From Candidatus Kapaibacterium sp. (lineage in GTDB: Bacteria > Bacteroidota > Ignavibacteria > Kapaibacteriales > UBA2268), in the NCBI GenBank assembly GCA_963665665.1, contig OY762428.1:1733200-1797199 (forward strand): DNA of 64,000 bases, given 5' to 3'. Position 1 is the stretch's first letter. Each line of letters starts with the position of its first letter. Position numbers and translations under genes: made by a program. This document shows positions 13,446-33,754 of this stretch, in pieces. Below the pieces are notes generated by a model. It saw only the letters and a program-made list of their open reading frames with translations, was not told where the DNA came from and searched no databases.

Positions 13446-13448
13446 TTT

Positions 13449-16360: not shown

Positions 16361-16439
16361 ATTAATTGCACTGTTATTGCACTGTTATTGCACTGTTATT
16401 GCACCGTTATTGCACCGTTATTGCACTGTTATTGCACTG
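16361..16439. repeat. Tandem repeat of 11 bp, TTATTGCAC(T/C)G, 7 copies
   Basis: Read directly: ttattgcactg x3, ttattgcaccg x2, ttattgcactg x2. Confidence 0.85.
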
Positions 16440-16969: not shown

Positions 16970-17394
16970 TAACGTTTGAAAGAAATATTATTGAATAATA
17001 ACAATCGAAAATATGCTTTTGTTTCAGATAGTAATTGAATGATTGTATTAATTATCAACAGAATATATTTAAGGCATTGAAAAATATTCCTTAATGTTAT
17101 ATAATTTTCATGCCGCGCGCCGCCGATGCCACGCCGGATAAAAAACACCTACCAGGGGGCTGCCTTAGGACAGGGGCGGCCCCGAATAAAAGTTTTTTCC
17201 AATAAGCGGCGGCTCTCCCTGACGGGTTCCCTGCCAAAAAAAAAGGCGGGAGGGTAGCCGGGCTTATCCGCTCCTTGACGAACCCGCCTGTATAATGGGC
17301 GATAGGCCGGTATCACCACTAAAAGGCCGCGGCAAAAAGAAAAACGGCATCCTGCATCAAAATAATGCGGGGCGCCGTTTTAATTGCCCGGAAA

Positions 17395-18444: not shown

Positions 18445-18453
18445 TTTAGCGTC

Positions 18454-18516
18454 AGCTTAGCCATGTCAACCTCGTACAAGTCTCCAAATTGACAAAGGCC
18501 ACAGCGATCAGCCGCT
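18454..18516. repeat. 63-bp direct repeat, copy 1 (partner at 19033-19096, about 90% identical)
   Basis: The sequence agcttagccatgtcaacctcgtacaagtctccaaattgacaaaggccacagcgatcagccgct contains the inverted hexamers TGTCAA...TTGACA. Confidence 0.7.
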
Positions 18517-18593
18517 TTGTATGTCTTATCATCCTGAAGCTCAGAGCGCCGTTTCAGTCATGATTTTTTAATTAAAGGCGTTCAAAAAAAAAT

Positions 18594-18902
18594 ATGAGTA
18601 ATCTTAAAAATTACTTTCCGGGAGTTTTTATCACTACCGGAATACATGAACTTGCGCGATCAAAGGAATGTTTCTGGCTCCTTGACCTTATCGTGTCTTA
18701 CCAGGCACATCCCGTTGTCGGTAAAGAACCATTTCAGTCTTACAGGCTAAAGGTCAATCCGGACGAATCCGCAACGCTTACCGTTACCGACGGCAATGAC
18801 AATGTCCTTGCCGAAAGGAAAATACCCTGGACTGATTTTGCGGGTTCTGCGCTTACCGTCTGGTGCGTTGATAAAATCATTTTGTTGCCTTCTGAATACT
18901 GA
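18594..18902 (+). CDS. Hypothetical protein
   Basis: 102-aa ORF flanked by the 63-bp direct repeats. Confidence 0.3.
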   Translation: MSNLKNYFPGVFITTGIHELARSKECFWLLDLIVSYQAHPVVGKEPFQSYRLKVNPDESATLTVTDGNDNVLAERKIPWTDFAGSALTVWCVDKIILLPSEY

Positions 18903-19032
18903 AGGCAACATTTTCTTTTTTTTATAAAGGCAGCTCAATGGAGCTTTTTGTTAATTATTCCGGGGAGCGCAAGTCTTTACTTTATGCTTTTATAACCCCT
19001 TTTGTGCCCGTCGGAATCCTCATTATAGCGGC

Positions 19033-19096
19033 AGCTTAACCGTGTCAACCTCGTACGGAGTCTCCAAATTGACAAAGGCCAGAGCGATCAGCCGCT
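19033..19096. repeat. 63-bp direct repeat, copy 2
   Basis: agcttaaccgtgtcaacctcgtacggagtctccaaattgacaaaggccagagcgatcagccgct. Confidence 0.7.
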
Positions 19097-19366
19097 GTAT
19101 TCGGGGCTTGCCGACAGGTAACAAACACGGCGTTACCGGCAGGCGGATATAAATAAAAGCCGTGAACAATAACTTTATGAACAAAGTTCAAAAAGAGAAG
19201 CATGAAAATGTTTCCGAAGCAAAACAGGATTTTCTGAAAAAACAGGAGATCATCAGAAAGCAGATCAAAGCCCGATGGGGCGAAAGGGATGAACGGCTTC
19301 CTTTAAAAAAAACAGCGATTTAAGGTGAAATAATCTTAACTTGCAAAAAATCAAAAGGAGCATCAA

Positions 19367-19654
19367 ATGGCAAACAAACGAAGAAATTACAGTTCAAAAT
19401 TCAAAATGCAGGTAGCCCTGGAGGCAGTCCAAGAGAGAAAAACAATAACCGAGCTGGCATCGGAGTACGGGGTTCATCCAAACCAGATAAGCATGTGGAA
19501 AAAGCATTTAAAAGAAAGTGAAAAGGAAGTATTTGAAAACAAGCGTGGGCCAGGGAAGAATAAAAAAGAAAAAGACGAATCAGTATTATATGAAGAAATA
19601 GGCCGGCTAAAAATTGAATTAGACTGGTTAAAAAAAAAATTGGGACGTGAGTAA
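19367..19654 (+). CDS. IS3 transposase OrfA
   Basis: Protein identical to copy 1 OrfA. Confidence 0.85.
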   Translation: MANKRRNYSSKFKMQVALEAVQERKTITELASEYGVHPNQISMWKKHLKESEKEVFENKRGPGKNKKEKDESVLYEEIGRLKIELDWLKKKLGRE

Positions 19655-20492
19655 AGAAGAACGCAGGAAGATGGTAGATGCTGATAATAAAGAAATTAGC
19701 ATAAGCCGGCAGTGCGAGCTTTTGGGTATTAGCAGGAGCTGTTATTATTACAAACCCAAGGGTGAAAGTGAAGCAAATATTCTATATATGAAGCTGATCA
19801 AAGAACAATTCGCGATTACTCCATTTTATGGAGCCAGAAAAATGACAGCACACTTACGTTCTTTGGGATACCATGTTAACTATAAACGAATCAGGCGATT
19901 AATGAAATTATTGGGACTTCGGGCAATATATCCCCAACCGGACACGAGCAAACCGAACAAGGAGCACAAAATTTATCCATACCTGTTGAGGGATATGAAA
20001 ATAAGTCGTCCGGATCAGGTTTGGAGCCTGGATATAACATATATTCCGATGCGTAAAGGATTTATGTATCTTATAGCAATTATAGATGTTTATAGCAGGT
20101 ATATCGTCGACTGGGAATTATCGAATAACCTTGAGAAGGAGTTCTGCATAGATACAATAAAAAGGTCTTTGAAAACCAGGAAACCGGAAATAACAAACAC
20201 GGATCAGGGCAGTCAGTTCACGAGCAATGATTTTGTGAAAACGATTCTGGATGCTGATGTTAAGGTAAGCATGGACGGCAAGGGCCGCGCCTTGGACAAT
20301 GTTTACATAGAACGCTTCTGGCGGAGCTTTAAATACGAAGACCTGTATCTGAAGTCTTACGAAGACGGAAAAGAGCTCTATGGCGGTATAAAGGCTTATG
20401 TCGATTGGTATAACAACACGAGGCCGCACGCAGGAATTGAATACCAGATTCCGGCTGAAAAATATATGAACGAACAGCGGTTCGTTAATTGA
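19647..20492 (+). CDS. IS3 transposase OrfB
   Basis: Protein identical to copy 1 OrfB. Confidence 0.85.
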   Translation: MSKEERRKMVDADNKEISISRQCELLGISRSCYYYKPKGESEANILYMKLIKEQFAITPFYGARKMTAHLRSLGYHVNYKRIRRLMKLLGLRAIYPQPDTSKPNKEHKIYPYLLRDMKISRPDQVWSLDITYIPMRKGFMYLIAIIDVYSRYIVDWELSNNLEKEFCIDTIKRSLKTRKPEITNTDQGSQFTSNDFVKTILDADVKVSMDGKGRALDNVYIERFWRSFKYEDLYLKSYEDGKELYGGIKAYVDWYNNTRPHAGIEYQIPAEKYMNEQRFVN

Positions 20493-20857
20493 AAACTTTG
20501 TTGGAAAAGTGAAAAAATGCAATCCGGTAAGCAATTGATAAAAAAAGAAATAGAAAGGAGAGTGAAAGTTATCCACAATTTCCAGGTTGTTAACAAAAAG
20601 AAAAAAAAGTAGCAAAAAAAAGAAAAATTAATATTATTACATATTTTTTTCTTATTTTATTAGAGAAGAAGTATAGATTAATAAACACCATAAACTATAC
20701 TTTTATTTGTCTAAGCAATAGGGAGCATTTCACTCAGCAGATCTGTGGAATTTCATTACAAAAGATAATTTAACAGCAGAAGATTCTTTTGGATTTACAA
20801 CACCAAGGAGCCTATCAAAATCAATTAGAAAAAAAGATTAGAAAAGGATAATCGAAA

Positions 20858-21232
20858 ATGATATCAAAAAAAATTATATTTTGTATAATATTCATCATAG
20901 TAAATATGGCAAAATTAGCATCAACAGATAATCTTAATGAAGATTACATTGGTATTTGTAAAATATCAAAAGACACAATCAGAATTGATTATTTTAGTTC
21001 TGTGCATGGTATTTCAAAAGTTTGTACTAAAATTAACGGTGATACACTAAACCTTAATCTTTTAGTAAGAGTTGGCAAGAAGCAAGATAGTCATTTCATT
21101 AAAATAAATGAAAATATAAAAGTTATATCAACTGGAAATATTAAATATTATGTTAATGATTTGGATTCATGTGGACAATTATATGAGGGAATTGATGCAA
21201 TAGAATATCTAAAAAAGCAAAGAACTGAATAA
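20858..21232 (+). CDS. Small secreted hypothetical protein
   Basis: 124-aa ORF with an N-terminal hydrophobic signal-like segment. Confidence 0.35.
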   Translation: MISKKIIFCIIFIIVNMAKLASTDNLNEDYIGICKISKDTIRIDYFSSVHGISKVCTKINGDTLNLNLLVRVGKKQDSHFIKINENIKVISTGNIKYYVNDLDSCGQLYEGIDAIEYLKKQRTE

Positions 21233-21417
21233 TTTATTATCCACTTTATCCCCCCGCCCTTCGGGGCGGGGATATATAAAGATCAATAACTGATGTATCC
21301 TTAATCATAAGAAAAAAGAGTTAAGGAATGGAGGATTGTTAAGGTTAAATGTTAGAGTTAACATCCACTGCTAAATCATTGGTTATTTTAATTTACTAAT
21401 TAATTTTGGAGGTTGCC

Positions 21418-22023
21418 ATGAAATCAGGCAAAGGAATTTTTATTGTTCTTGCAGTAATTTTGTTTTCGTATTTAAACATGCAGGCTGACTGTTATTATCC
21501 CTACCAGCAGTATTCATTCACCGGAAATTATGACGGTTGTGAATATATCTGCTACATTTGTTCAAAAACTGATTCGACATATCCGTTTGATCAGACATCA
21601 TATATCGATAGGATCGAAGTTTTGAATATTAACTGTTCCGACATGTTTGAAGATCCCTTATTCTGGGAAGAAGTAAATGAGAATGTTCTGTTAACTTTAA
21701 TGAATGATGCAAGCTGGCCGCCCTGCAGTAATGAAACTTATGAGTTTCTTATAAAAAGCGCACGATGCTGGAAGATTATTCATGACCATGTCGATAATAT
21801 GCTCACAATGAAAAATTGCGGGTATGATGCTTATTGCCTCAGTACTTATGAAGTATGTACCGATTATAACAAAAATCCGCCGGAAAACAAATGGACAATG
21901 ATTGGTAAATCAGTTATTAGTACTCCGGGATGTTCCGGAAACGGAGTTCCCGATTTACCTCCTTCGGGCAAAACCTGGAGTCAGGATTGGGAAACAGACT
22001 GCTTTATATTAGATTGCTATTAA
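21418..22023 (+). CDS. Cysteine-rich secreted hypothetical protein
   Basis: ATG at 21418 is preceded by GGAGG. The protein has a signal peptide and many Cys residues. Confidence 0.4.
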   Translation: MKSGKGIFIVLAVILFSYLNMQADCYYPYQQYSFTGNYDGCEYICYICSKTDSTYPFDQTSYIDRIEVLNINCSDMFEDPLFWEEVNENVLLTLMNDASWPPCSNETYEFLIKSARCWKIIHDHVDNMLTMKNCGYDAYCLSTYEVCTDYNKNPPENKWTMIGKSVISTPGCSGNGVPDLPPSGKTWSQDWETDCFILDCY

Positions 22024-22092
22024 TTTATTAATTTTCGTCATCCATCCGTATATTTGTACGGATGGATGATTTATTATTATTTTGGTTAGACT

Positions 22093-24327
22093 ATGAAAAG
22101 ATTAATCCTTTTATTCGCTTCGATTATTTTTATTACATCGCAAGCACAATCTGAACTTGTATTTGACTATCAAAGATTGGATATCAATTACACCGCAGTT
22201 ATTCATAAATACAATAATGTTTTCTTCTCAGGAAATTCGAATATCATAACGAGATATAACAAAGCATTACAGAAATGGAATCATATTAAAGTTGGGAAAA
22301 AAGATATTGATATTATAACTATAAAGGATTCTGATCAATCTCTTTACGGAATCTTCAAGCACCAATATATTTTTAAACTTGATATTAATGGAACGCCCCT
22401 GCAAATTGAAAATATTTCGGATACATCGACTAAGTTTTTAGATGTTCAATATCACTTAGGCAAATACTATATATTATGCAGGGATAAACTTATTGAACTT
22501 GATTCCGGATTTTCGTTTGTTCGGGATATTGAATTGCCTGAGGAAATAGAAGTATTGGAACTAACAGTGTTCGATGAAGCAATGATTATCGGAACAACTA
22601 ATGGTAAACTGCTTGTTTTTGAAGGGCAGGTTAACAGCAGTCCTGATATAATCGATTTAAATAGTATGCAATTATGCGAGCCTGATGCCAGGGTACATAA
22701 ATTTATTGAAAGTGATAACGAGCTTTACCTGATAATTGGTTCAAAGATATATTCAAGCGGCGATCTGGAATCTTTCAGGCCGCATGAAACCAATAATTTG
22801 AACTATAATGTTAATCATGGCAAAGTTTTTACTTTTTCAGTTGGTGGAAACGAGTTAAATCAATGTTCCTTTCACGTGTATGAAAATCAGGAACCTGTCC
22901 TGGTTAACAGGGGAAAGCTTGACAGATATGTAGAACAAATAAACGTATTGAACTTCTACTTTGTTGATTATAACATTATTTATGCTGTTGGCTCCAATAA
23001 CCTGATCCTGCGTTCAACGGACAGGGGAGGAACCTGGAAAGTAATATCATTTCTGAAACCTTATTACAAGTCTTCCTGGATAAGTGATGAAACAGGTTTT
23101 ATATATGCTGATGACGGTATTTTCATAAAAACGACAAACGGCGGTATTACATGGCAGCCACAATTAAATACATGGGTAAGCCTAAAGAAATTTAACCGCA
23201 AAACAACCTGCAACTTTGACCAGGATGGTAGATGTGTGATGTTCAGAGGATATGTTCAGGGTAGCGATCCGCATGCAGTTATTTCAAAAGACAGCTGTAA
23301 TACTTTTGAATACAAGAGAATTAATGAAATATCATCCTATGGGTTTGTTGATTTGCAGGCTCCGATAGTCAGAACAGAAGATGAATATAAGCTTTTTTAT
23401 CCCGGAAGGCACGGGCAAATGACTTATACTCTTATTTATACTCTTGACCTTGAGTTGAATTATAAAAACAAAGAGTTACTGGATGCAATCCATATCTTTG
23501 ATATTAAAAGCTATAAAGACGGTTGGCTTGCATTAGCCAAGGATTTTAAATATACAGACCTATACAGTCCTGATACAAATGTATACCATGTTATGTATTC
23601 TGATTACCCGGGCGTGGAATGGGATACCCTTCTGACGGTTAATCTTATGGATACTATTGCCCGAAATATAAACATTTTTGGTGATCAGGTTTTTCTGAAT
23701 GGTCATGTATTTAATCCTCTCCCTGATACATCAAGATATGTCCTTTATTTGCTTGATCCGGAGTATTCCACATATAAATCAATTCGTGTTGATTATGAAT
23801 CAACTTATAATAAAGTTTTTAAAACAGGCAATTATTATGTAACCGGCGGAAATAATTGCCTGTTGTATTGCGAGGATATTGAGAATAACCCTGAACATTG
23901 GGAAAAAACCACGGTAGAAGGGTATAATATCTTTTATTTAATGGGTAAAGGCAACAATTCAATGTACGCCTATACTTATGATGGGCATTATTTAAAATTC
24001 ACTTTCCAAAAGGAAACCTCGGTTGAAGATATAAGTGTTGAAAAAGTCAAAATGTATAGCTATCCTCCCTATCCTCAACCGGCGAATTATTCCGTGAAAT
24101 TTGAAATTTTCTGGGACAGCCGCTATAATCTTGAAAATGCAGCAATCGCAGTTCATGATTACATGGGCAGGGTTGTAAGCCGCCCCGGTGAAATTAGTAT
24201 TGATAAGTTAAACAATTACCAGGGCTATCTAAATTGGAACTGTTCCAAAACGTCCAACGGCGTATATTTCATTACTATTAATAATGCAGGTACTGTAAAG
24301 ACTGTTCCTGTTGTTGTTGACAGATAG
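22093..24327 (+). CDS. Secreted BNR-repeat protein with T9SS C-terminal sorting domain
   Basis: BNR motifs STDRGGTWKV and TTNGGITWQP, a signal peptide, and a C-terminus (NGVYFITINNAGTVKTVPVVVDR) typical of a T9SS CTD. Confidence 0.6.
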   Translation: MKRLILLFASIIFITSQAQSELVFDYQRLDINYTAVIHKYNNVFFSGNSNIITRYNKALQKWNHIKVGKKDIDIITIKDSDQSLYGIFKHQYIFKLDINGTPLQIENISDTSTKFLDVQYHLGKYYILCRDKLIELDSGFSFVRDIELPEEIEVLELTVFDEAMIIGTTNGKLLVFEGQVNSSPDIIDLNSMQLCEPDARVHKFIESDNELYLIIGSKIYSSGDLESFRPHETNNLNYNVNHGKVFTFSVGGNELNQCSFHVYENQEPVLVNRGKLDRYVEQINVLNFYFVDYNIIYAVGSNNLILRSTDRGGTWKVISFLKPYYKSSWISDETGFIYADDGIFIKTTNGGITWQPQLNTWVSLKKFNRKTTCNFDQDGRCVMFRGYVQGSDPHAVISKDSCNTFEYKRINEISSYGFVDLQAPIVRTEDEYKLFYPGRHGQMTYTLIYTLDLELNYKNKELLDAIHIFDIKSYKDGWLALAKDFKYTDLYSPDTNVYHVMYSDYPGVEWDTLLTVNLMDTIARNINIFGDQVFLNGHVFNPLPDTSRYVLYLLDPEYSTYKSIRVDYESTYNKVFKTGNYYVTGGNNCLLYCEDIENNPEHWEKTTVEGYNIFYLMGKGNNSMYAYTYDGHYLKFTFQKETSVEDISVEKVKMYSYPPYPQPANYSVKFEIFWDSRYNLENAAIAVHDYMGRVVSRPGEISIDKLNNYQGYLNWNCSKTSNGVYFITINNAGTVKTVPVVVDR

Positions 24328-24390
24328 AGTAGTGATAAGCAGGACGTTCCAGAAATAAATATTAGTTTACATAAGATAGATTATAATGCA

Positions 24391-24420
24391 AAATCCGGGA
24401 AGATTTTTCCGGATTTTGTT
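24391..24420 (+). terminator. Rho-independent terminator
   Basis: Hairpin tccgggaagatttttccgga followed by a T-run, downstream of the 744-aa gene. Confidence 0.6.
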
Positions 24421-24988
24421 CGTTTTGTGGCCGCCGTTGACGCATGCCGACGGCCAGCGGCAGCCAACTACGAAAAATGACGAGCTGCGACGCAAAAATT
24501 ACTCTCCGGAGAGAATTCCTTCATAAATTAGTCGTTTTCAGGAAAAATTTCCGGAAATTGTCCCATCCCAGAGGCTATTTCTAAAAACGACCGCCATAAA
24601 TCGCTTCTAAGGGGTTTTTATTTTTAGATTCGGTTGATGTATGGTAATTTTTGAAACGAGGCATCGCTTGACAACAATCTTATAATGATGTAATGTTTGC
24701 TAATGTTCTTTTTACAATAATATAATAGGTGTACAATGTATTCTAAAAATAATTCTCAATCAAATTCAAATTATGGCATTTGGTTTGTGATAATAGCATT
24801 AGTTTCAATAAACATCATTGCTTTTGGTTTTTTATCCTATTACCTTTCTTACTGGTTTATTGTTTTAGTTTCAATCCAATTTCTTTATTTTTCTTTTTTT
24901 AAAAGGAAATCTGAACGGCTTCCTTTAAAAAAAACAGCGATTTAAGGTGAAATAATCTTAACTTGCAAAAAATCAAAAGGAGCATCAA

Positions 24989-25276
24989 ATGGCAAACAAA
25001 CGAAGAAATTACAGTTCAAAATTCAAAATGCAGGTAGCCCTGGAGGCAGTCCAAGAGAGAAAAACAATAACCGAGCTGGCATCGGAGTACGGGGTTCATC
25101 CAAACCAGATAAGCATGTGGAAAAAGCATTTAAAAGAAAGTGAAAAGGAAGTATTTGAAAACAAGCGTGGGCCAGGGAAGAATAAAAAAGAAAAAGACGA
25201 ATCAGTATTATATGAAGAAATAGGCCGGCTAAAAATTGAATTAGACTGGTTAAAAAAAAAATTGGGACGTGAGTAA
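24989..25276 (+). CDS. IS3 transposase OrfA
   Basis: Protein identical to copy 1 OrfA. Confidence 0.85.
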   Translation: MANKRRNYSSKFKMQVALEAVQERKTITELASEYGVHPNQISMWKKHLKESEKEVFENKRGPGKNKKEKDESVLYEEIGRLKIELDWLKKKLGRE

Positions 25277-26114
25277 AGAAGAACGCAGGAAGATGGTAGA
25301 TGCTGATAATAAAGAAATTAGCATAAGCCGGCAGTGCGAGCTTTTGGGTATTAGCAGGAGCTGTTATTATTACAAACCCAAGGGTGAAAGTGAAGCAAAT
25401 ATTCTATATATGAAGCTGATCAAAGAACAATTCGCGATTACTCCATTTTATGGAGCCAGAAAAATGACAGCACACTTACGTTCTTTGGGATACCATGTTA
25501 ACTATAAACGAATCAGGCGATTAATGAAATTATTGGGACTTCGGGCAATATATCCCCAACCGGACACGAGCAAACCGAACAAGGAGCACAAAATTTATCC
25601 ATACCTGTTGAGGGATATGAAAATAAGTCGTCCGGATCAGGTTTGGAGCCTGGATATAACATATATTCCGATGCGTAAAGGATTTATGTATCTTATAGCA
25701 ATTATAGATGTTTATAGCAGGTATATCGTCGACTGGGAATTATCGAATAACCTTGAGAAGGAGTTCTGCATAGATACAATAAAAAGGTCTTTGAAAACCA
25801 GGAAACCGGAAATAACAAACACGGATCAGGGCAGTCAGTTCACGAGCAATGATTTTGTGAAAACGATTCTGGATGCTGATGTTAAGGTAAGCATGGACGG
25901 CAAGGGCCGCGCCTTGGACAATGTTTACATAGAACGCTTCTGGCGGAGCTTTAAATACGAAGACCTGTATCTGAAGTCTTACGAAGACGGAAAAGAGCTC
26001 TATGGCGGTATAAAGGCTTATGTCGATTGGTATAACAACACGAGGCCGCACGCAGGAATTGAATACCAGATTCCGGCTGAAAAATATATGAACGAACAGC
26101 GGTTCGTTAATTGA
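25269..26114 (+). CDS. IS3 transposase OrfB
   Basis: Protein identical to copy 1 OrfB. Confidence 0.85.
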   Translation: MSKEERRKMVDADNKEISISRQCELLGISRSCYYYKPKGESEANILYMKLIKEQFAITPFYGARKMTAHLRSLGYHVNYKRIRRLMKLLGLRAIYPQPDTSKPNKEHKIYPYLLRDMKISRPDQVWSLDITYIPMRKGFMYLIAIIDVYSRYIVDWELSNNLEKEFCIDTIKRSLKTRKPEITNTDQGSQFTSNDFVKTILDADVKVSMDGKGRALDNVYIERFWRSFKYEDLYLKSYEDGKELYGGIKAYVDWYNNTRPHAGIEYQIPAEKYMNEQRFVN

Positions 26115-26614
26115 AAACTTTGTTGGAAAAGTGAAAAAATGTAATCCGGTAAGCAATTGATAAAAAAAGAAATAGAAAGGAGAGTGAAAGTTATCCACAA
26201 TTTCCAGGTTGTTAACAAAAAGAAAAAAAAGTAGCAAAAAAAAGAAAAATTAATATTATTACATATTTTTTTCTTATTTTATTAGAGAAGAAGTATAGAT
26301 TAATAAACACCATAAACTATACTTTTATTTGTCTAAGCAATAGGGAGCATTTCATACTATATCGAGATTGATATAAAAACAATGAAGATCATCAATTATG
26401 ATTACGACCAAAAAGAAAATTTTGACCTAAACCAGTTAAACAAAGGGCCGACTCAAATAATATTTTTAACAAAAGGCCAGTACAACAAATTTGTTGGCCG
26501 CCTTGCAGAATAATATCCGCAACCAAATCGAAAGATTAAATAATTATATAACTACTGATTTTACTGCCAATATCGCTTTGGGCTCAGGCTATCAATAAAA
26601 TTTCTCCTTTTTTT

Positions 26615-26729
26615 GGGTTACTTTTATTATGAGGCAACGATATTTTTTCTATTTTGATGGGTTACATTTTTTATGAGGCAACGACATTTTTAAAAAATAT
26701 TTATGGTTACATTTTTTATGAGGCAATTC
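26615..26729. repeat. Three direct repeats of about 26 bp (GGTTACATTTTTTATGAGGCAACGA) at about 44-bp spacing
   Basis: Repeat units at 26615, 26658 and 26703. Confidence 0.7.
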
Positions 26730-26774
26730 GTCCTCTAACCAAATCCACCTCCCCCCCTCTTTCCTATTCCAAAA

Positions 26775-26792
26775 TATTTTGTATATTCAGGA
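26775..26792 (+). promoter_or_regulatory. Conserved island motif ATATTTTGTATATTCAGG (copy 1 of 4)
   Basis: The same 15-18-mer recurs at 28006, 30234 and 31327, each time upstream of a gene unit. It resembles the Bacteroidetes -7 element TAnnTTTG. Confidence 0.4.
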
Positions 26793-26829
26793 GTGATTCT
26801 GGAATTGCTTTTCGGCTGCATTTAATCCT

Positions 26830-27525
26830 GTGGGCAATTACAGGCAAATATATAATATGAGTTTGATTAAATTTGCGGATCAAAAAATGGAAAAATCTGA
26901 AAAATTTGAAGATATTTACTCCTCGCCGAATAATGCGCCGTGGACATACCCGGAAATCCCCGCTGAGTTTTACGATCTGATCGAAAAGAAGATAATCACG
27001 CCGCCGGGAAAAGTCCTTGAGATGGGCTGTGGCGAAGGACACATCTCAATTTTCCTGGCAAAACTCGGATTCGATGTTACCGCCATCGACCGCTCCGCTA
27101 ATGCAATCAAATTTGCCATGCAGAATGCAAACGCTCAGGACGCAACAGTCGATTTCAGAACCGGGGAATTTCATGAAATAGATCATTATAATGAAAGATT
27201 TGATTTTATCTTTGACTGGAGATTCCTGCACGAGATTTGCGATGAGCCCCTGCGTGAAAAGTATATTCAATCAATAACTAAGCTGCTTAAGCCGGAAGGG
27301 ATATATCTATCTGTATCATTTAGTGGTGATTCCGATTTCATGGGTTCCGGCAAACTCAGGACGTCGCCTGCAGGAATCGAGATATATTTCTCACCCCTTA
27401 CCGATTTACAGAGTTTAGTTGGAAATTATCTTCAGGTTCTGGATTCAGGAATAATCATTGTACCCCAGAAACCCGACCTAAAGATAAAATCAAACTATAT
27501 TCTTGCTAAGAAGGTAAAATATTGA
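26830..27525 (+). CDS. Class I SAM-dependent methyltransferase (TPMT/TehB-like)
   Basis: Motif I is VLEMGCGEGHISIFLAKLGFDVTAIDRS. The start is probably an internal Met (MSLIKF or MEKSEKF). Confidence 0.6.
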   Translation: MGNYRQIYNMSLIKFADQKMEKSEKFEDIYSSPNNAPWTYPEIPAEFYDLIEKKIITPPGKVLEMGCGEGHISIFLAKLGFDVTAIDRSANAIKFAMQNANAQDATVDFRTGEFHEIDHYNERFDFIFDWRFLHEICDEPLREKYIQSITKLLKPEGIYLSVSFSGDSDFMGSGKLRTSPAGIEIYFSPLTDLQSLVGNYLQVLDSGIIIVPQKPDLKIKSNYILAKKVKY

Positions 27526-27558
27526 AGAATTGGAGGATGATTTATTTAATGAGAATTA

Positions 27559-27903
27559 TTGAATGGTAATTATATGGCAAATCGTTGGGGAATACCAAAG
27601 GATGTTGAAGAAATTGTAAGAAAAAGAGATACTGCATGTGTTTATTGCGGAGTAAAATTTTCGAATGATAACACTACTCGGGCAAGCAAACCATCATGGG
27701 AACATATAATAAATGACATTAGAATAAATGGTACAGATAATATTGCTCTTTGTTGTATATCCTGTAACGCAAGTAAGGGCGCTAAATTGCTTGAGGATTG
27801 GCTTGCATGTGATTACTGCAAGAAAAAAAATATTACGGTTGATTCTGTTGCAGAAGTAGTAAGAATGGCATTACTGCAACCACCAGGATTGAAAAACAAA
27901 TAA
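27559..27903 (+). CDS. HNH endonuclease
   Basis: Motifs CVYCGVKF...WEHIINDIRINGTDNIALCCISCNASKG (C-x2-C...H...N...C-x2-C). Confidence 0.65.
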   Translation: MNGNYMANRWGIPKDVEEIVRKRDTACVYCGVKFSNDNTTRASKPSWEHIINDIRINGTDNIALCCISCNASKGAKLLEDWLACDYCKKKNITVDSVAEVVRMALLQPPGLKNK

Positions 27904-28005
27904 ACCCAACACAAGATATAGTTAACAAGGGTTTAAGCGGTTAGCGCAATTTTATCTCCCGCTTTAGCTTTATCGTATAGAGCTGATATTTTTACAATTA
28001 TTTTT

Positions 28006-28023
28006 ATATTTTGTATATTCAGG
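28006..28023 (+). promoter_or_regulatory. Conserved island motif (copy 2)
   Basis: atattttgtatattcagg lies 96 bp upstream of the 28119 gene. Confidence 0.4.
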
Positions 28024-28118
28024 GGGTTGATAAATAGAAGTTGCTTTAATCGGGTCAACTAATTATTTCTGTTATCGATATTTGTTTCGTTTTTAAAACA
28101 ACTGGAGAATCATAGATT

Positions 28119-28592
28119 ATGAATTATTTAATAATCACAATTTTGTTATTCAGTTTAACTGTTGGAGCTTTTGGGCGGGAAGAAACCATTGAAATTAAAC
28201 TAAATGAAAATTACGTCCTGATTCTAACAAAAATACCCTTTGACCCCCAGAAACATTCCATCAGGGATATCGGTAATTATACTTACATCATCGACGAAAA
28301 ACCGATATTTGGAAACGACGGGCATTTGCCGAGATTTGAATTGATTAATGCTCAACTTCAATTTGACGGAAAAAGTGTGAAATTGGATACAGATTCAATG
28401 TTCGAACCCTGGTTTGAAAAAAATATCAAAAAAGAAAGCTTTAAAATTAAATACGATGAGGCAGGACTAAAACTTTCAGGTTTATTTTCTGACGGAGCAG
28501 GTCTTTATGGGGCTGAATGGTTGATAGTTGACACTGTAAGTATTAGAACGATTATTACCAAAGATGAAGAAGTTTTGTTTGAATATTTTTAA
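28119..28592 (+). CDS. Secreted hypothetical protein
   Basis: 157-aa ORF with a signal peptide. A hairpin (ctcagtttac...gtaactgag) lies downstream. Confidence 0.4.
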   Translation: MNYLIITILLFSLTVGAFGREETIEIKLNENYVLILTKIPFDPQKHSIRDIGNYTYIIDEKPIFGNDGHLPRFELINAQLQFDGKSVKLDTDSMFEPWFEKNIKKESFKIKYDEAGLKLSGLFSDGAGLYGAEWLIVDTVSIRTIITKDEEVLFEYF

Positions 28593-28689
28593 CAATATTC
28601 TCAGTTTACTATATTGTAACTGAGATAATGCAACCGATGTTCGAGTTGGAAAAACAGCAAATAATATTTAATCAATTTGAAATATATAC

Positions 28690-29364
28690 GTGAAAGAAGA
28701 AATTACTCAATATTACAATGATTTGGCAAAAGACTATGATAATAATAGATTTAGTAATACTTATGGGCAATATATTCATAAGCAAGAGGACGAAATATTA
28801 ATTAGGTATTTGGGCAAGAAAAATACTGAGTTCAATTTAGATATTGCATGTGGAACAGGGAGATTCTTGAAATACACAGATTATGGCATTGATATCAGTA
28901 AGGAAATGGTGAAAATATCAAGGAAGAAATTTCCTAAAAAGAGAATCTCAATTGAAGATGCAGAATCTTTATCATTTGAAGATTCATTTTTTGACAATGT
29001 TATCTCGTTTCATTTATTCATGCATCTAAATATTGTTTCATTCAAAACAATACTTATTGAAGTTTATAGAATCTTAAAAACTGGAGGATATTTTATTTTT
29101 GATATACCTTCAGAAAAGAGAAGAAAACTTTCAGGATACCACAGTTCCAATTGGCACGGAGGCAATCAAATGAGTGTTAAATCAATAAGAAGCCTAATCG
29201 ATCCAGAATGGGAATTGGTTTCTTTTCACGGTATAGCATTTTTTCCTATTCATCGTATACCTAATAAACTCAGAAAAAGAATTGTAATTTTGGATAGTTT
29301 TATGAGTAATTCATTCCTAAAAGAATATAGTTCACATTTAATTTTTATTCTCAAGAAAAAATGA
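28690..29364 (+). CDS. Class I SAM-dependent methyltransferase (Methyltransf_11-like)
   Basis: GTG start. Motif I is LDIACGTGRFL. Confidence 0.6.
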   Translation: MKEEITQYYNDLAKDYDNNRFSNTYGQYIHKQEDEILIRYLGKKNTEFNLDIACGTGRFLKYTDYGIDISKEMVKISRKKFPKKRISIEDAESLSFEDSFFDNVISFHLFMHLNIVSFKTILIEVYRILKTGGYFIFDIPSEKRRKLSGYHSSNWHGGNQMSVKSIRSLIDPEWELVSFHGIAFFPIHRIPNKLRKRIVILDSFMSNSFLKEYSSHLIFILKKK

Positions 29365-30068
29365 TAAACAGGATTATTCCATACTTCATAAAAGTTAGGC
29401 TTCAATTAATTAAAAGAAGAATATATGACATAATTATGGGGTATCATTATAACTATGCGAAAAAATTGAATTACAAAAACAATTTACCAAAAACTTTAAC
29501 AATTAAACAGGAATTAAAACCAAATAAATCAAAAATGAAAAATCTGGAAATAGCAATAAAAAGTATTGAATCTGTCCAAATAAATCCAAATGAAATATTT
29601 TCTTTTTGGCATATTTTAGGTAGACCATCACAAAAGAAAGGGTTTGTAAAAAGTCGTTCTTTGGTTAATGGTAAACTGGACAATTCTTTTGGTGGTGGTT
29701 TGTGCCAATTATCAGGTTTAATATATTTTATTAGTTTATTTGCCAACCTTGAAATACTAGAAAGACATAATCATTCCATGGATATTTATACTGATGAAAC
29801 TCGTTTTACTCCATTGGGTTCTGATGCTACTGTTGCTTATGGTTACAAAGATTTAAAGATAAGAAACACATTAACTAGTCCAATAAGATTTGAATTTTCT
29901 ATAGAGGAAAATAACATAATAATTTACCTTAGGCACGAATGTTTAATAGAAAAAAATAAAGTTGAGTTTATAATAAATGAGATTGATAGTACTGTTATTG
30001 AAGTTGATACAAAAATCAATAATGTACTCATAAATAAATCGAAATATCAAAGACTTCAGTTAAGCTAG
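29361..30068 (+). CDS. VanW-family protein
   Basis: GGGLCQLSGLIYFISLFANLEILERHNHS matches the VanW core (GGGxCQxS...ERHNHS). The start overlaps the upstream stop (ATGA). Confidence 0.65.
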   Translation: MINRIIPYFIKVRLQLIKRRIYDIIMGYHYNYAKKLNYKNNLPKTLTIKQELKPNKSKMKNLEIAIKSIESVQINPNEIFSFWHILGRPSQKKGFVKSRSLVNGKLDNSFGGGLCQLSGLIYFISLFANLEILERHNHSMDIYTDETRFTPLGSDATVAYGYKDLKIRNTLTSPIRFEFSIEENNIIIYLRHECLIEKNKVEFIINEIDSTVIEVDTKINNVLINKSKYQRLQLS

Positions 30069-30233
30069 ATAATATGCATCCTAAAAAGCTGAAACAGTCT
30101 TAATTTATTGCAGTTAAACCTATTAATACAACAGCAATTCGCTTTGCAAGCACAGGTTTATTAAAAATTAGCCGTTATTTAAGCTCTGTATTTCCCTATC
30201 CAAATCATTCCACATGACTTTACTGTTAACCAT

Positions 30234-30251
30234 ATATTTTGTATATTCAGG
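30234..30251 (+). promoter_or_regulatory. Conserved island motif (copy 3)
   Basis: atattttgtatattcagg lies 34 bp upstream of 30285. Confidence 0.4.
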
Positions 30252-30284
30252 TATTGATAATCCTGCTGAAGGAGGAAGATTTTA

Positions 30285-31313
30285 ATGAACACAGCTATGC
30301 AAAAATTCGAGAATGATTTTTATAATAAAGTTGCCGATTTATTGAAAGAAGCGCGGCAGAACGTTGTTCAAACAGTCAATAAAACTATGGTTCGCGCTTA
30401 TTATGAAATTGGGCGAATGATTGTTGAAGAGGAACAAAACGGAAAAGAACGCGCAGAATATGGCAAATCTCTATTGAAGGGACTATCCCAAAAATTGATA
30501 TCTGAGTTTGGAAGGGGGTTCTCGGTTACAAATCTCCAACAAATGAAGAATTTTTATGCTATTTATGGAAAACAACAGACACTGTCTGTTAAATCTGAAC
30601 ATAAAGATATGAGTTTTCGGCTAAGCTGGTCTCATTATTTGTTTTTAATGCGAATAGACAGTATTGAAGAAAGAAAGTTCTATGAGATTGAAGCAATAGA
30701 TAACAATTGGAGTTTGCGCGAGCTTCGCAGGCAATTCGATGCCTCGCTATACGAAAGGCTTGCATTAAGTCGGAACAAAAATGGAATAAAAGAACTTTCT
30801 GAAAAAGGACAGGTAATCGAAAATGCAAGGGATAGTTTGAAAGATCCATATATTCTTGAATTTATCGGTCTGCCGGAAACGAACAAATATTCCGAAAGTG
30901 AATTGGAACAAAAGTTAATCGATAAATTGGAACATTTTCTCCTTGAATTGGGAAAGGGCTTCACATTTGTTGGCAGGCAGGTTAGATTTACATTTGATGA
31001 GGAACATTTCAGGGCAGATTTGGTTTTTTACAATCGACTTTTGCAATGTTTTGTTGTTATTGATTTGAAAATCGGAAAATTAACACATCAGGATTTGGGT
31101 CAGATGCAGATGTATGTTAATTATTACGACAGATTTGTAAAACTTGATTCGGAAAATAAAACTATAGGGATAATTTTATGTAAAGACAAGAAAGATACGC
31201 TTGTGGAAATAACTTTGCCGGAAAATAATGACCAGATATTTGCGAGCAAGTATCAGACAGTATTACCCAGTAAAAAAGAATTAAAGAAATTGATTGAGAA
31301 TAAAGAAGATTAG
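30285..31313 (+). CDS. DUF1016/YhcG-family PD-(D/E)XK nuclease
   Basis: The N-terminus (YYEIGRMIVEEEQNG...EFGRGFSVTNLQQMKNFY) is typical of YhcG. PD-(D/E)XK-like motif ADLVFY...VVIDLKIGK. Confidence 0.7.
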   Translation: MNTAMQKFENDFYNKVADLLKEARQNVVQTVNKTMVRAYYEIGRMIVEEEQNGKERAEYGKSLLKGLSQKLISEFGRGFSVTNLQQMKNFYAIYGKQQTLSVKSEHKDMSFRLSWSHYLFLMRIDSIEERKFYEIEAIDNNWSLRELRRQFDASLYERLALSRNKNGIKELSEKGQVIENARDSLKDPYILEFIGLPETNKYSESELEQKLIDKLEHFLLELGKGFTFVGRQVRFTFDEEHFRADLVFYNRLLQCFVVIDLKIGKLTHQDLGQMQMYVNYYDRFVKLDSENKTIGIILCKDKKDTLVEITLPENNDQIFASKYQTVLPSKKELKKLIENKED

Positions 31314-31326
31314 CAAAACTTAAATT

Positions 31327-31341
31327 TTTTGAATATTCAGG
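31327..31341 (+). promoter_or_regulatory. Conserved island motif (copy 4, variant TTTTGAATATTCAGG)
   Basis: Located 107 bp upstream of 31448. Confidence 0.35.
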
Positions 31342-31447
31342 AGTTAGATGTAGTAATTATTGAGTTTATGTATGGAATATTTAATCGATTATGTTTAATT
31401 GAAAGACTTATGATTGAAATTTCTCAAATTCTAAAGGCCGGATACCA

Positions 31448-31744
31448 ATGGGTAAGACAAAATTAAAAGTTAATGAGTTAGAAATTGTTCTTTATAAACT
31501 AAATGAGGAAGAATATATCTCATTGACTGATATGGCAAAATTCCGCGACTCTGACAGAACAAATTATATCATTCAGAACTGGATGAGAACCAGAAACACA
31601 ATAGAATTTCTGGGACTTTGGGAACATCTGCATAATACTAATTTTAAAAGCATCGAATTCGATGCTTTTAGAAATGAATCAGGTGCAAACAGTTTTTCTC
31701 TTACTCCAAAGAAATGGATTGATGCTACAAAAAAGGCCTGGTAA
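31448..31744 (+). pseudogene. KilA-N domain protein, truncated/degraded
   Basis: ISLTDMAKF...NWMRTRNTIEFLGLWEHLHNTNFKSIEFDAF...GANSF matches the KilA-N N-terminal half. Full-length homologues are about 250 aa. A frame-shifted remnant of the C-terminal part (MHKEGMKFYLPANGVWLTEF) lies at about 31840-31940. Confidence 0.45.
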
Positions 31745-31978
31745 AATAGAGCCTAAGCAACGGCAAGATAATTTTTTAAATTTTTGGGTATGTAATAATA
31801 AGGCTGCAATCCGTTTCAATTCTCAGGCTTAATGCACAAAGAAGGAATGAAATTTTACCTACCCGCAAACGGAGTCTGGCTGACTGAATTTGTAGCACAT
31901 AGATTTATTGCAGAAGAGTAGAATTTAGTTTTATTATCAAATAATTATTTGTTTCAAAATTTATAAAGGGTTGTTTCA

Positions 31979-32428
31979 ATGAAAAGATTGATTTATTCAG
32001 CATTTGTGATTGGCGTATTTGTAATGTTTGGCTCGTCGGTAATAGCAAAGAATGCAATGAATATCGATGAATTTACCAAGGAAATCAGCAAGGCTGTTCC
32101 AAAGGAGTTCAAGTTTGATGAAAAAGGAACGGATAAAGGTAACCTGTACGTGGTTTATAAGAAAAGTCCGCAGGAAGTAATGACGGTGAATTGGCAAAAA
32201 GAATATGATATTGAGTTCCCGGACCAGGAAACAACAACTGTTAAAGGCCATAAAACAATTTTTTATTATATGGGATTCAAAAAAAGCGCGGGGATTGTTG
32301 TATTTTTAAAAAATAACGCAGGATATCTTGTGGTTGGATTCAACAAACCCTATATGGGCGAAGAGATAGTGAAAAAGGAAGAGCTTATTGACATCGTAAA
32401 GAAATTGGATTTAAGCAGGTTTGAGTAA
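31979..32428 (+). CDS. Secreted hypothetical protein
   Basis: 149-aa ORF with a signal peptide. Confidence 0.4.
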   Translation: MKRLIYSAFVIGVFVMFGSSVIAKNAMNIDEFTKEISKAVPKEFKFDEKGTDKGNLYVVYKKSPQEVMTVNWQKEYDIEFPDQETTTVKGHKTIFYYMGFKKSAGIVVFLKNNAGYLVVGFNKPYMGEEIVKKEELIDIVKKLDLSRFE

Positions 32429-32920
32429 AAAAGAAGAAGACATGCGCTTCAGAGCAAATACTTTGGAGCGCATGTTTTGTTTGAAAACCGATTCCAATAT
32501 TTCGAGTATTTATGATTTGTTTAGATAATTTGTGTTTTTATGGTGCTGTAAAATAAGTAGAAGAACAAAAAACAAAAAATGCAAATAACAACTAATCTAT
32601 GTTTATTGCATTTCGACTATTGAGTGCGCCCGCTTGTAGTCTCAAATTAACTATATGCCTCCGGCAGACTTTGAAAATTTGCGGCTTTAACCTCCAAAGG
32701 TTTGGTAAAATAGCTCCGTAGGAGCGACACAAAAAGCGATATGCCGCAGCTACGGGGCTTATACATGTGATTGGGTAATAAATTCTACAAAAATGACGCA
32801 GCTACGCTGCTTGAGAATTGTTGAATTTTATTGAAATATAAGGTTTGGATACCCTTTTTCACTGCAAAGAATCGGCATCGGCTGGCATTATCTGCGTGAT
32901 TTGATGCAGATGAAAATTAT

Positions 32921-33193
32921 TTGTATATTATTACGTATAGGAAAGTAACAAAGAAAAGGCATATTATCATGGAAACAATTTCAATTTCAAAGGAAGAATA
33001 TTTGTCTCTTAAAAAAGAGAATGAATTGCTTAAAGACCAGGAGCTTTTGAACAAAATGAATATTCTTATTGATATATTGTTCGAGAAAAAATATGGCCTT
33101 TATCTTGGCGATGACACCAGGGATTTAACTGAAGCTTTATTAGATAACCTGCCTGAGTGGAAAACCGACAGCGAGGCATGGGATGGAGTTTAA
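32921..33193 (+). CDS. Putative antitoxin of a MazF/PemK toxin-antitoxin pair
   Basis: Small ORF overlapping the toxin gene by 11 nt. The likely start is the internal Met (METISISKEEY). Confidence 0.5.
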   Translation: MYIITYRKVTKKRHIIMETISISKEEYLSLKKENELLKDQELLNKMNILIDILFEKKYGLYLGDDTRDLTEALLDNLPEWKTDSEAWDGV

Positions 33194-33536
33194 GCAGAGA
33201 GATGTAGTATTAGTTCCATTCCCGTATTCCGACCTCACTTCTGTCAAAAGAAGGCCGGTTCTAATTATTTCTAATGATTCCTATAACAATAAAAGGGAAG
33301 ATGTTATTGTATGTATCCTTACAAGTAATACCTTTATTGATGAATATTCTATCCCGATATCAAATGATTCTCTGGAATACGGGCTTTTGCCGGAACCATC
33401 GGTAATCAAAGCCGCAAAGTTGTTTACAATTCATAAGGCAATGATATTGAAGAAATTTAGCGTGGTTAACAAGGAAACTTTTAAAGAGGTGGTTTCGAGA
33501 TTGTCAAAAATATTCAAAAACAATGGCAAAAAATAA
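33183..33536 (+). CDS. MazF/PemK-family toxin (mRNA interferase)
   Basis: RDVVLVPFPYSDLTSVKRRPVLIISNDSYN...VIVCILTSN matches the PemK/MazF signature. Confidence 0.7.
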   Translation: MEFKQRDVVLVPFPYSDLTSVKRRPVLIISNDSYNNKREDVIVCILTSNTFIDEYSIPISNDSLEYGLLPEPSVIKAAKLFTIHKAMILKKFSVVNKETFKEVVSRLSKIFKNNGKK

Positions 33537-33754
33537 TCTTATCAGTTCTTTGAAATTACGCATCCATCCCAGGGAAGATTTTGCATTCAGCTCCGTAGGA
33601 GCGATATTTTTGTAGAAAACATAAATCCCAAACGCATTCCCCAAGCTCCGTAGGAGCGACACAAAAACGACATATCCCAGCTACGCTGCTGATGTATTAT
33701 TAAATTTTTGGAATTTTTGATATTAACTCCGAAAGGTTTTGGCAGGTGGATTTT

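Follow-up and report, generated by a model that had tools for sequence, protein, structure and literature searches.

A recurrent 18-nucleotide motif as the probable core of a reused promoter in a low-GC island of Candidatus Kapaibacterium sp.

In a low-GC island of Candidatus Kapaibacterium sp., the same short sequence recurs upstream of several unrelated gene units. Does this sequence drive the expression of the units, or does it mark their boundaries? The original prediction left both options standing, i.e., a promoter specific to a dedicated sigma factor or regulator and a recombination site between cassettes. We addressed this question in the whole 64,000-nucleotide stretch of DNA that was analyzed, here called the window. 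A motif search of the window found the exact 18-mer ATATTTTGTATATTCAGG three times on the + strand and a fourth copy, ATTTTTTGAATATTCAGG, with two mismatches (Table 1). The predicted recurrence is thus real, with its first coordinate off by one (26774), and the identity of three copies, announced as 15/15, extends to 18/18. Five matches with at most three mismatches were observed versus 0.19 expected by chance, and five matches were reached in 0 of 100 shuffles; the remaining match is AT-only and lies at positions 4542-4525 (-). A position-weight-matrix scan scored the motif copies at 33.5-38.4 bits and the next best site in the window at 18.8 bits, and it gave no further site in L180 and L170-L179. 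Moreover, the full 18-mer is absent from about 95 kb of non-island DNA of two strains, and within the DNA scanned (the window, L180 and L170-L179), the full motif was seen in the island only. A scan of IMG/VR returned single, chance-like matches only.

The identity is confined to a short block. Flanks of non-orthologous copies are alike at a random level (6-16 of 40 positions upstream and 9-16 of 40 downstream; 15-40% identical), and the shared sequence amounts to 18-19 nt, with sharp edges against these flanks. Copies 2 and 3 show slight extra similarity, with TTTAC upstream and TTGATAA downstream. No convincing dyad symmetry was found in the motif, the sole arms being 4-5 bp of AT. All copies in the window and in L166, part of a related metagenome contig (L166/L176) that carries the same island, are intergenic and oriented like the next gene (8/8, four in each), and the next ORF begins 34-217 nt downstream. 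None of them lies at a junction inside an operon, and there is no motif between the methyltransferase and HNH genes of unit 1. The distances to the start codons in the window agree with the 34-107 bp reported earlier (Table 1), and an AGGAGG ribosome-binding site lies between copy 3 and the DUF1016 ATG.

The composition of the units was borne out by Pfam: the copies precede a methyltransferase with an HNH endonuclease, a hypothetical protein with a methyltransferase and VanW, a DUF1016 PD-(D/E)XK nuclease and a KilA-N fragment, with MazF further on. The genes behind the copies belong to different Pfam families and are non-paralogous; the two methyltransferases (units 1 and 2) are unrelated to each other (E = 0.19), and the closest homologues of the hypothetical 157-aa protein are just 36-52% identical to it. 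The island has a GC content of 33% (A+T 67%) versus 40-44% in the flanks. Together with the PADLOC matches (PDC-S02 and PDC-S22), the mazEF pair and the strain-variable gene content, this makes the proposed defence or mobile island a reasonable description: the island is horizontally acquired, and its units are defence-candidate genes. Three IS3-family copies were confirmed in the window. Phage remnants, namely, a lone terminase, the HNH gene and the KilA-N fragment, adjoin the modules.

Table 1. Motif copies, gene units and other features of the island, in window coordinates
Feature	Position	Strand	Remarks
Whole island	26354..33700	+	all genes on + strand; GC 33%; gene content variable (two strains)
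Three direct repeats, 44-45 bp (GGTTACWTTTWTTATGAGGCAA...)	26614..26736	+	just upstream of copy 1; two in L166
Copy 1 -35-like hexamer TTTCCT	26760..26765	+	16 nt upstream of TATATT; L166 orthologue TTTACT at 17 nt
Motif copy 1, ATATTTTGTATATTCAGG	26774..26791	+	exact match; 66 nt upstream of methyltransferase ATG
Unit 1: SAM methyltransferase (26857-27525) and HNH endonuclease (27574-27903)	26857..27903	+	Pfam; PHROGs HNH matches
Copy 2 -35-like hexamer TTTACA	27991..27996	+	17 nt upstream of TATATT; sigma-70 consensus match 10/12
Motif copy 2	28006..28023	+	exact match; 96 nt upstream of ATG of hypothetical 157-aa gene
Unit 2: hypothetical 157-aa protein, second SAM methyltransferase, VanW	28119..30068	+	Pfam; GC 28.8%
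Copy 3 -35-like hexamer TTTACT	30219..30224	+	17 nt upstream of TATATT
Motif copy 3	30234..30251	+	exact match; 34 nt upstream of DUF1016 ATG
Unit 3: DUF1016/YhcG PD-(D/E)XK nuclease	30285..31313	+	Pfam; PADLOC PDC-S02
Copy 4 -35-like hexamer TTAGCA	31310..31315	+	overlaps DUF1016 stop codon; spacing 17 nt in L166
Motif copy 4, degenerate, ATTTTTTGAATATTCAGG	31324..31341	+	two mismatches; 107 nt upstream of ATG; L166 orthologue TTATTTTGTATATTCAGG
Unit 4: truncated KilA-N gene, 98 aa	31448..31744	+	Pfam; covers N-terminal third of PADLOC PDC-S22
Promoter-like site before mazEF: TTGATG, 17 nt, TATATT	32901..32929	+	core ATTTGTATATT present, without CAGG

The internal organization of the motif and its immediate upstream region is promoter-like. 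TATATT (motif positions 9-14) is present in every copy, and in four of five independent putative promoters, a TTGACA-like hexamer (at least 4/6 positions) is found exactly 17 nt upstream of it (TTTACA, TTTACT, TTTACT in L166 copy 1, and TTAGCA), with a background probability of 0.046 per site. The spacing is 16 nt in two window copies, and the hexamers of window copy 1 and of the degenerate L166 copy are poor. Primary-sigma promoters of Bacteroidetes/Chlorobi consist of a -33 TTTG or TTG, 17-23 nt and a -7 box TAnnTTTG; for Chlorobaculum RpoD, the -7 consensus is TA[ATC][ATC][AT]T with TTG 17-23 nt upstream (bioRxiv 10.1101/172254), and Flavobacterium has a TAnnTTGY variant, a class attributed to non-sigma-A control in Flavobacterium psychrophilum (PMC9723704). 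The motif shares with these promoters the two-box geometry, i.e., a TTTAC-type element 17 nt upstream of TATATT, as well as a co-oriented position upstream of genes. It differs from them in not containing an exact TAnnTTTG. The overlap with this element that had been proposed is thus inexact, since ATATTTTG lacks the TA; what does fit is TATTTTGT for TAnnTTGY and TATATT for the Chlorobi-type box. These two overlap inside the motif, which makes the register ambiguous. Housekeeping genes of the same organisms carry TAnnTTTG boxes, which the motif matches imperfectly.

The 11-nt core TTTTGTATATT (at most one mismatch) is enriched in the window (16 versus 5.8 expected) and in L176 (11 versus 2.4), and cores of this type precede mazEF, a restriction-modification unit of L176 and, both here and in a related genome, some genes outside the island, so that the core resembles the general promoter signal of the lineage. 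In addition, the core TTTTGTAnAT is common to other promoter-like sites in the organism and its relatives. In contrast, ATA on the 5' side and TCAGG on the 3' side, which do not belong to the generic core, are island-specific and absent from other promoter-like sites. The motif has 18 invariant positions versus about 8-10 in a sigma consensus, and 18/18 identity exceeds what a sigma factor alone normally imposes.

Comparison with L166/L176 separates the motif from its surroundings. Copy 1 and the next 7 nt are identical in L166 (25/25), whereas the 28 nt directly upstream are about 50% identical. Between the motif copies, L166/L176 has different gene units: in L166, other genes take the place of window segment 27512-30187, including copy 2, and homology resumes at 30187. 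One unit of L166 is headed by a degenerate fifth copy, and the variable segment of each strain has its own copy of the motif, exact in the window and with four mismatches in L166. Units thus turn over between strains. A comparison of homologous islands had been suggested as a way to detect gain or loss of cassettes at the motif, but 0 of 7 strain-to-strain junctions (window versus L166/L176) fell in it; the two that come closest lie 47 nt before copy 3 and 109 nt past copy 1. In other phyla, homologues of DUF1016 are 83-85% identical but differ in their upstream region, which holds a canonical TAnnTTTG promoter, TTTCG-N19-TATCTTTG, and no motif. Because these homologues have a different promoter, the motif belongs to the island rather than to the DUF1016 gene and was acquired in the island.

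We therefore favor, with a probability of about 0.6, the reading that the 18-mer is the core of a single promoter, reused in front of every one of the unrelated units. Its position, its orientation, the -35-like hexamer at fixed spacing, the -10/-7-type box, the conservation between strains against a diverged flank and the similarity of the core to other promoter-like sites all support a putative promoter. That transcription starts here, which of the boxes is used and why the ATA... and ...TCAGG ends are conserved are points that we infer from this layout. The promoter core would comprise a spacer-proximal TTTTG, the TATATT -10/-7 box and CAGG preceding or including the start site. Binding of RNA polymerase holoenzyme to the TTTAC-type -35 element and to the TATATT 17 nt downstream would lead to initiation a few bases past CAGG; in promoters of the Bacteroidetes/Chlorobi type, a start is expected about 5-8 nt downstream of the box. 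As the low-GC island was assembled horizontally, every independent transcription unit would have come to begin with this promoter, followed by a 5' leader and genes unrelated to those of the other units. The copies would thus descend, as paralogues, from a single ancestral promoter. Their flanks would have drifted to random similarity, while selection for the same protein contacts, possibly together with short-tract conversion among the copies, would have kept the core identical.

The conserved bases might instead be recognized mainly by a dedicated factor, either a repressor or activator encoded by the island or an element (with an operator overlapping the promoter) or an alternative sigma factor, and the units would then be one co-regulated set. 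We consider this possible but rather unlikely. The sharp-edged 18/18 block, the ATA and TCAGG ends missing from other promoter-like sites, the confinement of the full motif to the island in the DNA scanned and the match of TATTTTGT to the TAnnTTGY class argue for it, as does the repeat array adjoining copy 1, whose 44-45-bp repeats could be putative regulator binding sites. However, among the ORFs tested in the window and L166, Pfam identified no sigma factor or DNA-binding regulator except the truncated KilA-N and MazE; the lack of convincing dyad symmetry and the sharing of the core with non-island promoter-like sites also speak against such a factor. A somewhat more doubtful extension makes the motif the common promoter-operator of an island-wide regulon, in which unrelated defence-candidate units would stand behind copies of one control element and be switched together by a putative factor. 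These would be the methyltransferase-HNH, VanW, DUF1016/PDC-S02 and KilA-N/PDC-S22 units and, in other strains, different ones; the shared element and leader would provide short homology for unit exchange, as a "promoter-per-cassette" counterpart to the integron's single Pc.

The remaining readings are less likely. A site-specific recombination or attachment site marking cassette boundaries in the manner of attC/attI, at which units are gained and lost, would suit the one-directional array of small unrelated units with a toxin-antitoxin pair, the unit content that differs between two strains and the junction just 47 nt from copy 3. It is nevertheless improbable, given that all seven junctions avoid the motif and that no tyrosine/serine recombinase or Phage_integrase domain was present in any ORF tested in the window and L166, the only rve-type matches being IS3 transposases. 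Single-strand folds of the four intergenic regions gave z values of +0.6 to -1.4 in 7 of 8 cases and -2.3 in one, no RYYYAAC...GTTRRRY pair brackets the units, and Rfam had no match even at E <= 1. Moreover, the units hold 1-3 genes, and the motif is on their 5' side with a -35 element. This half of the original alternative is thus not supported (0/7 junctions, no recombinase gene, no attC-like structure), while the promoter half finds support in position, orientation, -35/-10 boxes and footprint. We give even less credence to a role at the RNA or translation level, as a conserved transcript 5' end, a processing site or a short upstream ORF from the TTG in the motif (M-Y-I-Q...). TTG-TAT-ATT-CAG does open a frame of 5-45 codons in every copy (e.g., ORF 31329-31466), and with TATTTTGT as the -7 box, the transcript would begin with TCAGG; yet it is the nucleotide sequence that is identical, synonymous positions and the 8 nt before the TTG included, there is no ribosome-binding context at the TTG, the peptides diverge in length and sequence after four residues, and the leaders have no common structure (z of -1.8 to +1.2) and no Rfam match. 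Least credible of all is a neutral remnant that recent local duplications left behind and that has no function of its own, or a chance recurrence in AT-rich DNA. The AT-richness of the island and the closer likeness of copies 2 and 3 would fit it, but shuffling predicts 0.19 matches against five observed, neutral decay does not produce a perfect core beside random flanks, and the core is kept across strains next to a diverged flank.

Returning to the promoter reading, we compared the island with known systems. Phage morons are independent promoter-gene modules in prophages, and promoters across a phage regulon are near-identical. The island resembles morons and phage-type promoter sets in its self-contained modules of promoter-like site and gene, its GC content unlike that of the surroundings, its near-identical promoter-like cores and its adjoining phage remnants; it differs in that a prophage backbone is not recognizable, the window holds neither a phage polymerase gene nor a sigma gene, and the units are not followed by clear terminators. 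A promoter set of a phage single-subunit RNA polymerase was rejected, since the window ORFs scanned contain no cognate polymerase domain. With integron cassette arrays and integrase-less attC clusters, the island has in common small unrelated accessory units in one direction, a toxin-antitoxin pair and strain-variable content. Unlike in integrons, there are no integrase, attC hairpin or core sites in the island, and the junctions lie off the motif; furthermore, the promoter-like motif is 5' of each unit, whereas integron cassettes are mostly promoterless. The class of putative mobile promoters requires an identity of 80% or more across 50 nt or more (Matus-Garcia, Nijveen, van Passel 2012; PMC3575422). 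As in these, near-identical upstream sequences precede non-homologous genes in one genome with no associated IS/MITE, but the motif copies share 18-19 nt only, the rest being random, which falls short of that identity threshold. A MITE, REP or IS terminus was likewise rejected: the conserved block of 18 nt has no inverted partner and is unrelated to the IS3 ends and the REP-like GCTCCGTAGGAGC elements.

The motif is real and tidy but fairly ordinary; at present, it amounts to a modest regulatory element restricted to its lineage rather than to a system of a new kind. If the promoter reading is correct, it provides a concrete testable promoter for Ignavibacteria/Kapabacteria, a lineage without start-site maps in the literature searched, in which we found no transcription start site papers for Ignavibacteria. 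It would also be a clean natural example of promoter reuse, in which acquired genes are refitted with a local expression signal, as exemplified by the DUF1016 nuclease, with its own canonical promoter elsewhere and the local signal here. Finally, if a dedicated factor reads the motif, several unrelated defence-candidate genes would be under one switch, which would bear on the regulation of defence islands.

Searching the window with up to three mismatches recovered three exact copies of ATATTTTGTATATTCAGG, identical over all 18 nt, together with a fourth copy carrying two mismatches and one further, AT-only match carrying three (Table). The four-fold recurrence of the original prediction was thus confirmed, and the 15 of 15 identical positions that it had reported for three copies were exceeded. 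Only 0.19 matches were expected from shuffled sequence, and five were reached in none of 100 shuffles. The flanks of non-orthologous copies shared 6 to 16 of 40 bases upstream and 9 to 16 of 40 downstream, no more than expected at random in DNA this AT-rich; sharp block edges were also evident when all copies were aligned. Every copy was intergenic and on the coding strand, and none was found at intra-operon junctions such as methyltransferase-HNH or methyltransferase-VanW.

The island has a GC content of 33%, compared to 40 to 44% on both sides, and the predicted gene calls were upheld by Pfam. The methyltransferases of units 1 and 2 are mutually unrelated, and homologues of the 157-aa protein reached at most 52% identity. 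In PADLOC, DUF1016 corresponds to the defence candidate PDC-S02 and the KilA-N fragment to the N-terminal third of PDC-S22. Relatives of the island proteins with at least 90% identity occurred only in the two island-bearing genomes, and the island is known from two strains in the collections searched; it was not found beside mreBCD in the three closest retrievable relatives (synteny via MreB). Three copies of a 44-45-bp direct repeat (GGTTACWTTTWTTATGAGGCAA...) lie directly upstream of motif copy 1, and two in the related strain; no other occurrence was detected in the window or IMG/VR. The toxin-antitoxin pair mazEF is enclosed by REP-like elements (AGCTCCGTAGGAGCGACA and CAGCTACGCTGC hairpins); the related strain has additional genes, 5.5 kb in all, at this place.

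Table. Positions of the motif copies, gene units and other elements (window coordinates unless another contig is named; hexamer spacing is counted to TATATT)
Feature	Position	Strand	Remarks
Low-GC island	26354-33700		
Motif copy 1	26774	+	Exact; TTTCCT at 16 nt (related strain: TTTACT at 17 nt)
Motif copy 2	28006	+	Exact; TTTACA at exactly 17 nt
Motif copy 3	30234	+	Exact; TTTACT at exactly 17 nt
Motif copy 4	31324		2 mismatches; TTAGCA at 16 nt (related strain: 17 nt)
AT-only match	4542-4525	-	3 mismatches
Unit 1	26857-27525; 27574-27903		SAM methyltransferase; HNH (Pfam)
Unit 2	28119-30068		157-aa hypothetical protein, second methyltransferase, VanW (Pfam)
Unit 3	30285-31313		DUF1016/YhcG PD-(D/E)XK nuclease (Pfam)
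Unit 4	31448-31744		KilA-N fragment, 98 aa (Pfam)
Genes after unit 4			149-aa protein, mazEF
Core before mazEF	32919		
44-45-bp direct repeat	26614-26736		
REP-like elements	32712-32811; 33589-33700		
Segment differing in L166	27512-30187		HNH, copy 2, unit 2
97-bp duplication	L166 3869-3965; 4703-4799		Methyltransferase leader and first 13 codons
DUF1016/YhcG homologue loci	L170 3870-5100; L174 540-1790; L175 3870-5100		Compared with unit 3
Terminase gene and variable slot	4634-7143; L176 5675-10666		
Plasmid-like module	7316-26354		
IS3-family copies (starts)	7316; 19290; 24912		Identical
Rep3 initiator	8756-9673	-	
Iteron-like repeats	9705-11042		CCCCAAATCGGTTGCATTT
11-bp tandem repeat	16365-16439		ATTGCACTGTT, 6.8 copies
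Duplicated ~1.4-kb units	41416-44646		Tandem
Repeat-built ORFs	42221-42865; 43617-44282		21-bp (7-residue) periodicity

The motif contains TATATT at positions 9 to 14, with a TTGACA-like hexamer upstream. A match of at least four of six bases at exactly 17 nt was reached by four of five independent promoters, the per-site probability from the window's background being 0.046. A generic promoter scan also detected copies 2 and 3. This arrangement shares the geometry of Chlorobaculum tepidum RpoD promoters, TTG-N17-23-TA[ATC][ATC][AT]T (bioRxiv 10.1101/172254), and closely resembles the Bacteroidetes -33/-7 promoter. TATTTTGT, also within the motif, fits the TAnnTTGY variant box known from Flavobacterium psychrophilum (PMC9723704); with two possible boxes, the sequence is compatible with either register. 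TTTTG was rejected as a -33 element, as no box followed at 19 to 21 nt, and a distal element CTCTAWCCAAATC, which copies 1 and 3 share at a distance of about 41 nt on the upstream side, was not significant (5 matches, 3.5 expected).

Type IX secretion sorting domains, and MreB, whose closest named relatives are from Candidatus Kapaibacterium and Ignavibacteria (85 to 88% identity), assign the host to the Ignavibacteria/Kapabacteria branch within the Bacteroidota-Chlorobi group. We inspected upstream regions of non-island genes both in the window and in 20.8 kb of related-strain housekeeping DNA, as well as in three related genomes. TAnnTTTG boxes were present upstream of these genes (TATTTTTG, TATATTTG, TATCTTTG, TAATTTTG), several of them preceded by TTTG or TTTA at 19 to 21 nt. 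Several boxes also run on as ...TTTTGTAAAT, and the motif's 11-nt core, TTTTGTATATT, thus resembles the general signal. With at most one mismatch the core was enriched, occurring 16 times in the window (5.8 expected) and 11 times in L176, the extended contig of the related strain (2.4 expected). It also heads mazEF (32919 in the window), the related strain's restriction-modification unit and a few non-island genes. Nothing comparable to the full 18-mer was detected elsewhere in the window by a position-weight-matrix scan (next best 18.8 bits versus 33.5 to 38.4), nor in the further related contig L180 or in related loci and others of the FCB group (Fibrobacteres-Chlorobi-Bacteroidetes), about 120 kb in total, and the motif was not found in about 95 kb of non-island DNA of the two strains.

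The second strain is known from a metagenome contig in ENA, L166, and its extension L176, found via exact-protein look-ups. The copies orthologous to 1 and 3 were exact there, and the one orthologous to copy 4 had a single mismatch; copy 4 of the window is thus the decayed form. At copy 1, the motif and the next 7 nt were identical between strains (25/25), whereas identity fell to about one half over the 28 nt directly upstream, and the repeat array beyond them was conserved again; this conserved copy beside a diverged flank is a footprint of constraint on the motif. TTTACTATTA is common to L166 copies 1 and 3, which are thereby more alike than copy 1 and its orthologue. Gene content differed at several places. 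HNH, copy 2 and unit 2 are replaced in L166 by two other genes, headed by a degenerate motif copy, TTTTTTAGTATATTCAGA. Downstream of copy 1, L166 holds a two-gene insert (738 bp; ORFs of 92 and 114 aa) between perfect 97-bp duplicates of the methyltransferase leader and first codons. The insert opens with the 8 nt ACGGAATT, and the same 8 nt span the boundary at which the first repeat copy begins, ATT being both their last three bases and the first three of the repeat; short homology is thus indicated as the route of a very recent insertion. In the left slot, a beta-lactamase-fold gene in the window stands against an Eco57I-like type IIG restriction-modification system with a 221-aa protein in L176, and gene content after mazEF also differs. 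A lone phage terminase large-subunit gene before this slot is intact in the window and fragmented in L176. In this comparison, the units of exchange appear to be whole promoter-plus-gene modules.

The DUF1016 gene has homologues with 83 to 85% identity in other phyla. Three homologue loci lacked the motif; upstream of their genes they share another conserved stretch, which ends in a canonical Bacteroidetes-type promoter, TTTCG-N19-TATCTTTG. The window's gene resembles them only from about codon 10 to just before the stop codon. The motif accordingly belongs to the island and not to the genes, and the DUF1016 gene has probably been refitted here with a local promoter, leader and ribosome-binding site. 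Across phyla, DUF1016/YhcG homologues travel as solo genes, accompanied by some 85 bp of conserved upstream sequence (GTTAGCGGCTATT...TATCTTTG), and CCGCTAA after the stop codon at two loci is the inverted complement of TTAGCGG within GTTAGCGG; the solo gene and its upstream region look like a small mobile unit.

The original prediction had offered either a dedicated promoter or a recombination site marking cassette boundaries. A recombination site is highly improbable: none of the seven placeable strain-to-strain junctions fell within the motif, the closest lying 47 nt from copy 3, on its upstream side, and 109 nt from copy 1, on its downstream side, so that the comparison of the two strains gave no indication of cassette gain or loss at the motif itself. 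Moreover, no integrase or other recombinase was detected in the ORFs searched, IS3 transposases excepted, and the four intergenic regions gave unremarkable folds as single-stranded DNA, with no attC-like folding. An RNA element found no Rfam match at the gathering threshold or at E <=1, and the four leaders had no common structure. A short reading frame (MYIQ...) does open at the internal TTG of every copy; however, identity extends to synonymous positions and to bases upstream of the TTG, and the frame is without a ribosome-binding site, and we therefore rejected an upstream ORF. Public collections returned 46 single matches of ATWTTTTGWATATTCAGG in IMG/VR and at least 119 in GTDB genomes, most inspected ones looking like chance matches in coding sequence of unrelated taxa. 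Three matches of TTTACW-N12-TTTTGTATATTCAGG in JGI metagenomes were all antisense in coding sequence, hence chance. BLAST against phages and plasmids gave coding matches only (KilA-N and DUF1016), and a literature search with the motif string only unrelated primer sequences.

Further elements were observed in the window. The three IS3-family copies bracket a plasmid-like module, which besides its Rep3 initiator and iteron-like repeats encodes a type IV coupling protein, a Replic_Relax protein, a primase and DUF6876. The related contig lacks the bracketed block in its entirety, the counterparts of window 7194-7316 and 26354 onward being directly joined; the block splits a 62-aa ORF. The relaxase-like gene of the integrated plasmid is directly followed by the 11-bp tandem repeat, which could be an origin-of-transfer or binding array. 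The two repeat-built ORFs in the duplicated units had no Pfam match.

Of the original alternatives, the promoter half is supported. TTTTGTATATT and the -35 element would be its generic part and would account for recognition by the host polymerase. The sigma consensus does not explain the extra invariant bases (5' ATA, 3' TCAGG), which may stem from common descent under strong selection, from short inter-copy conversion tracts or from contact with an additional factor. The last, a "dedicated" promoter, is rather unlikely, as no sigma factor or regulator gene was detected in the ORFs searched, KilA-N and MazE excepted. The closest concept in the literature is promoter reuse, whose formal definition asks for 80% identity or more across 50 nt or more (PMC3575422), a length that the motif does not attain. 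The best-supported reading of the sequence is a promoter core reused at the head of each unit in a horizontally assembled island of defence-candidate genes.
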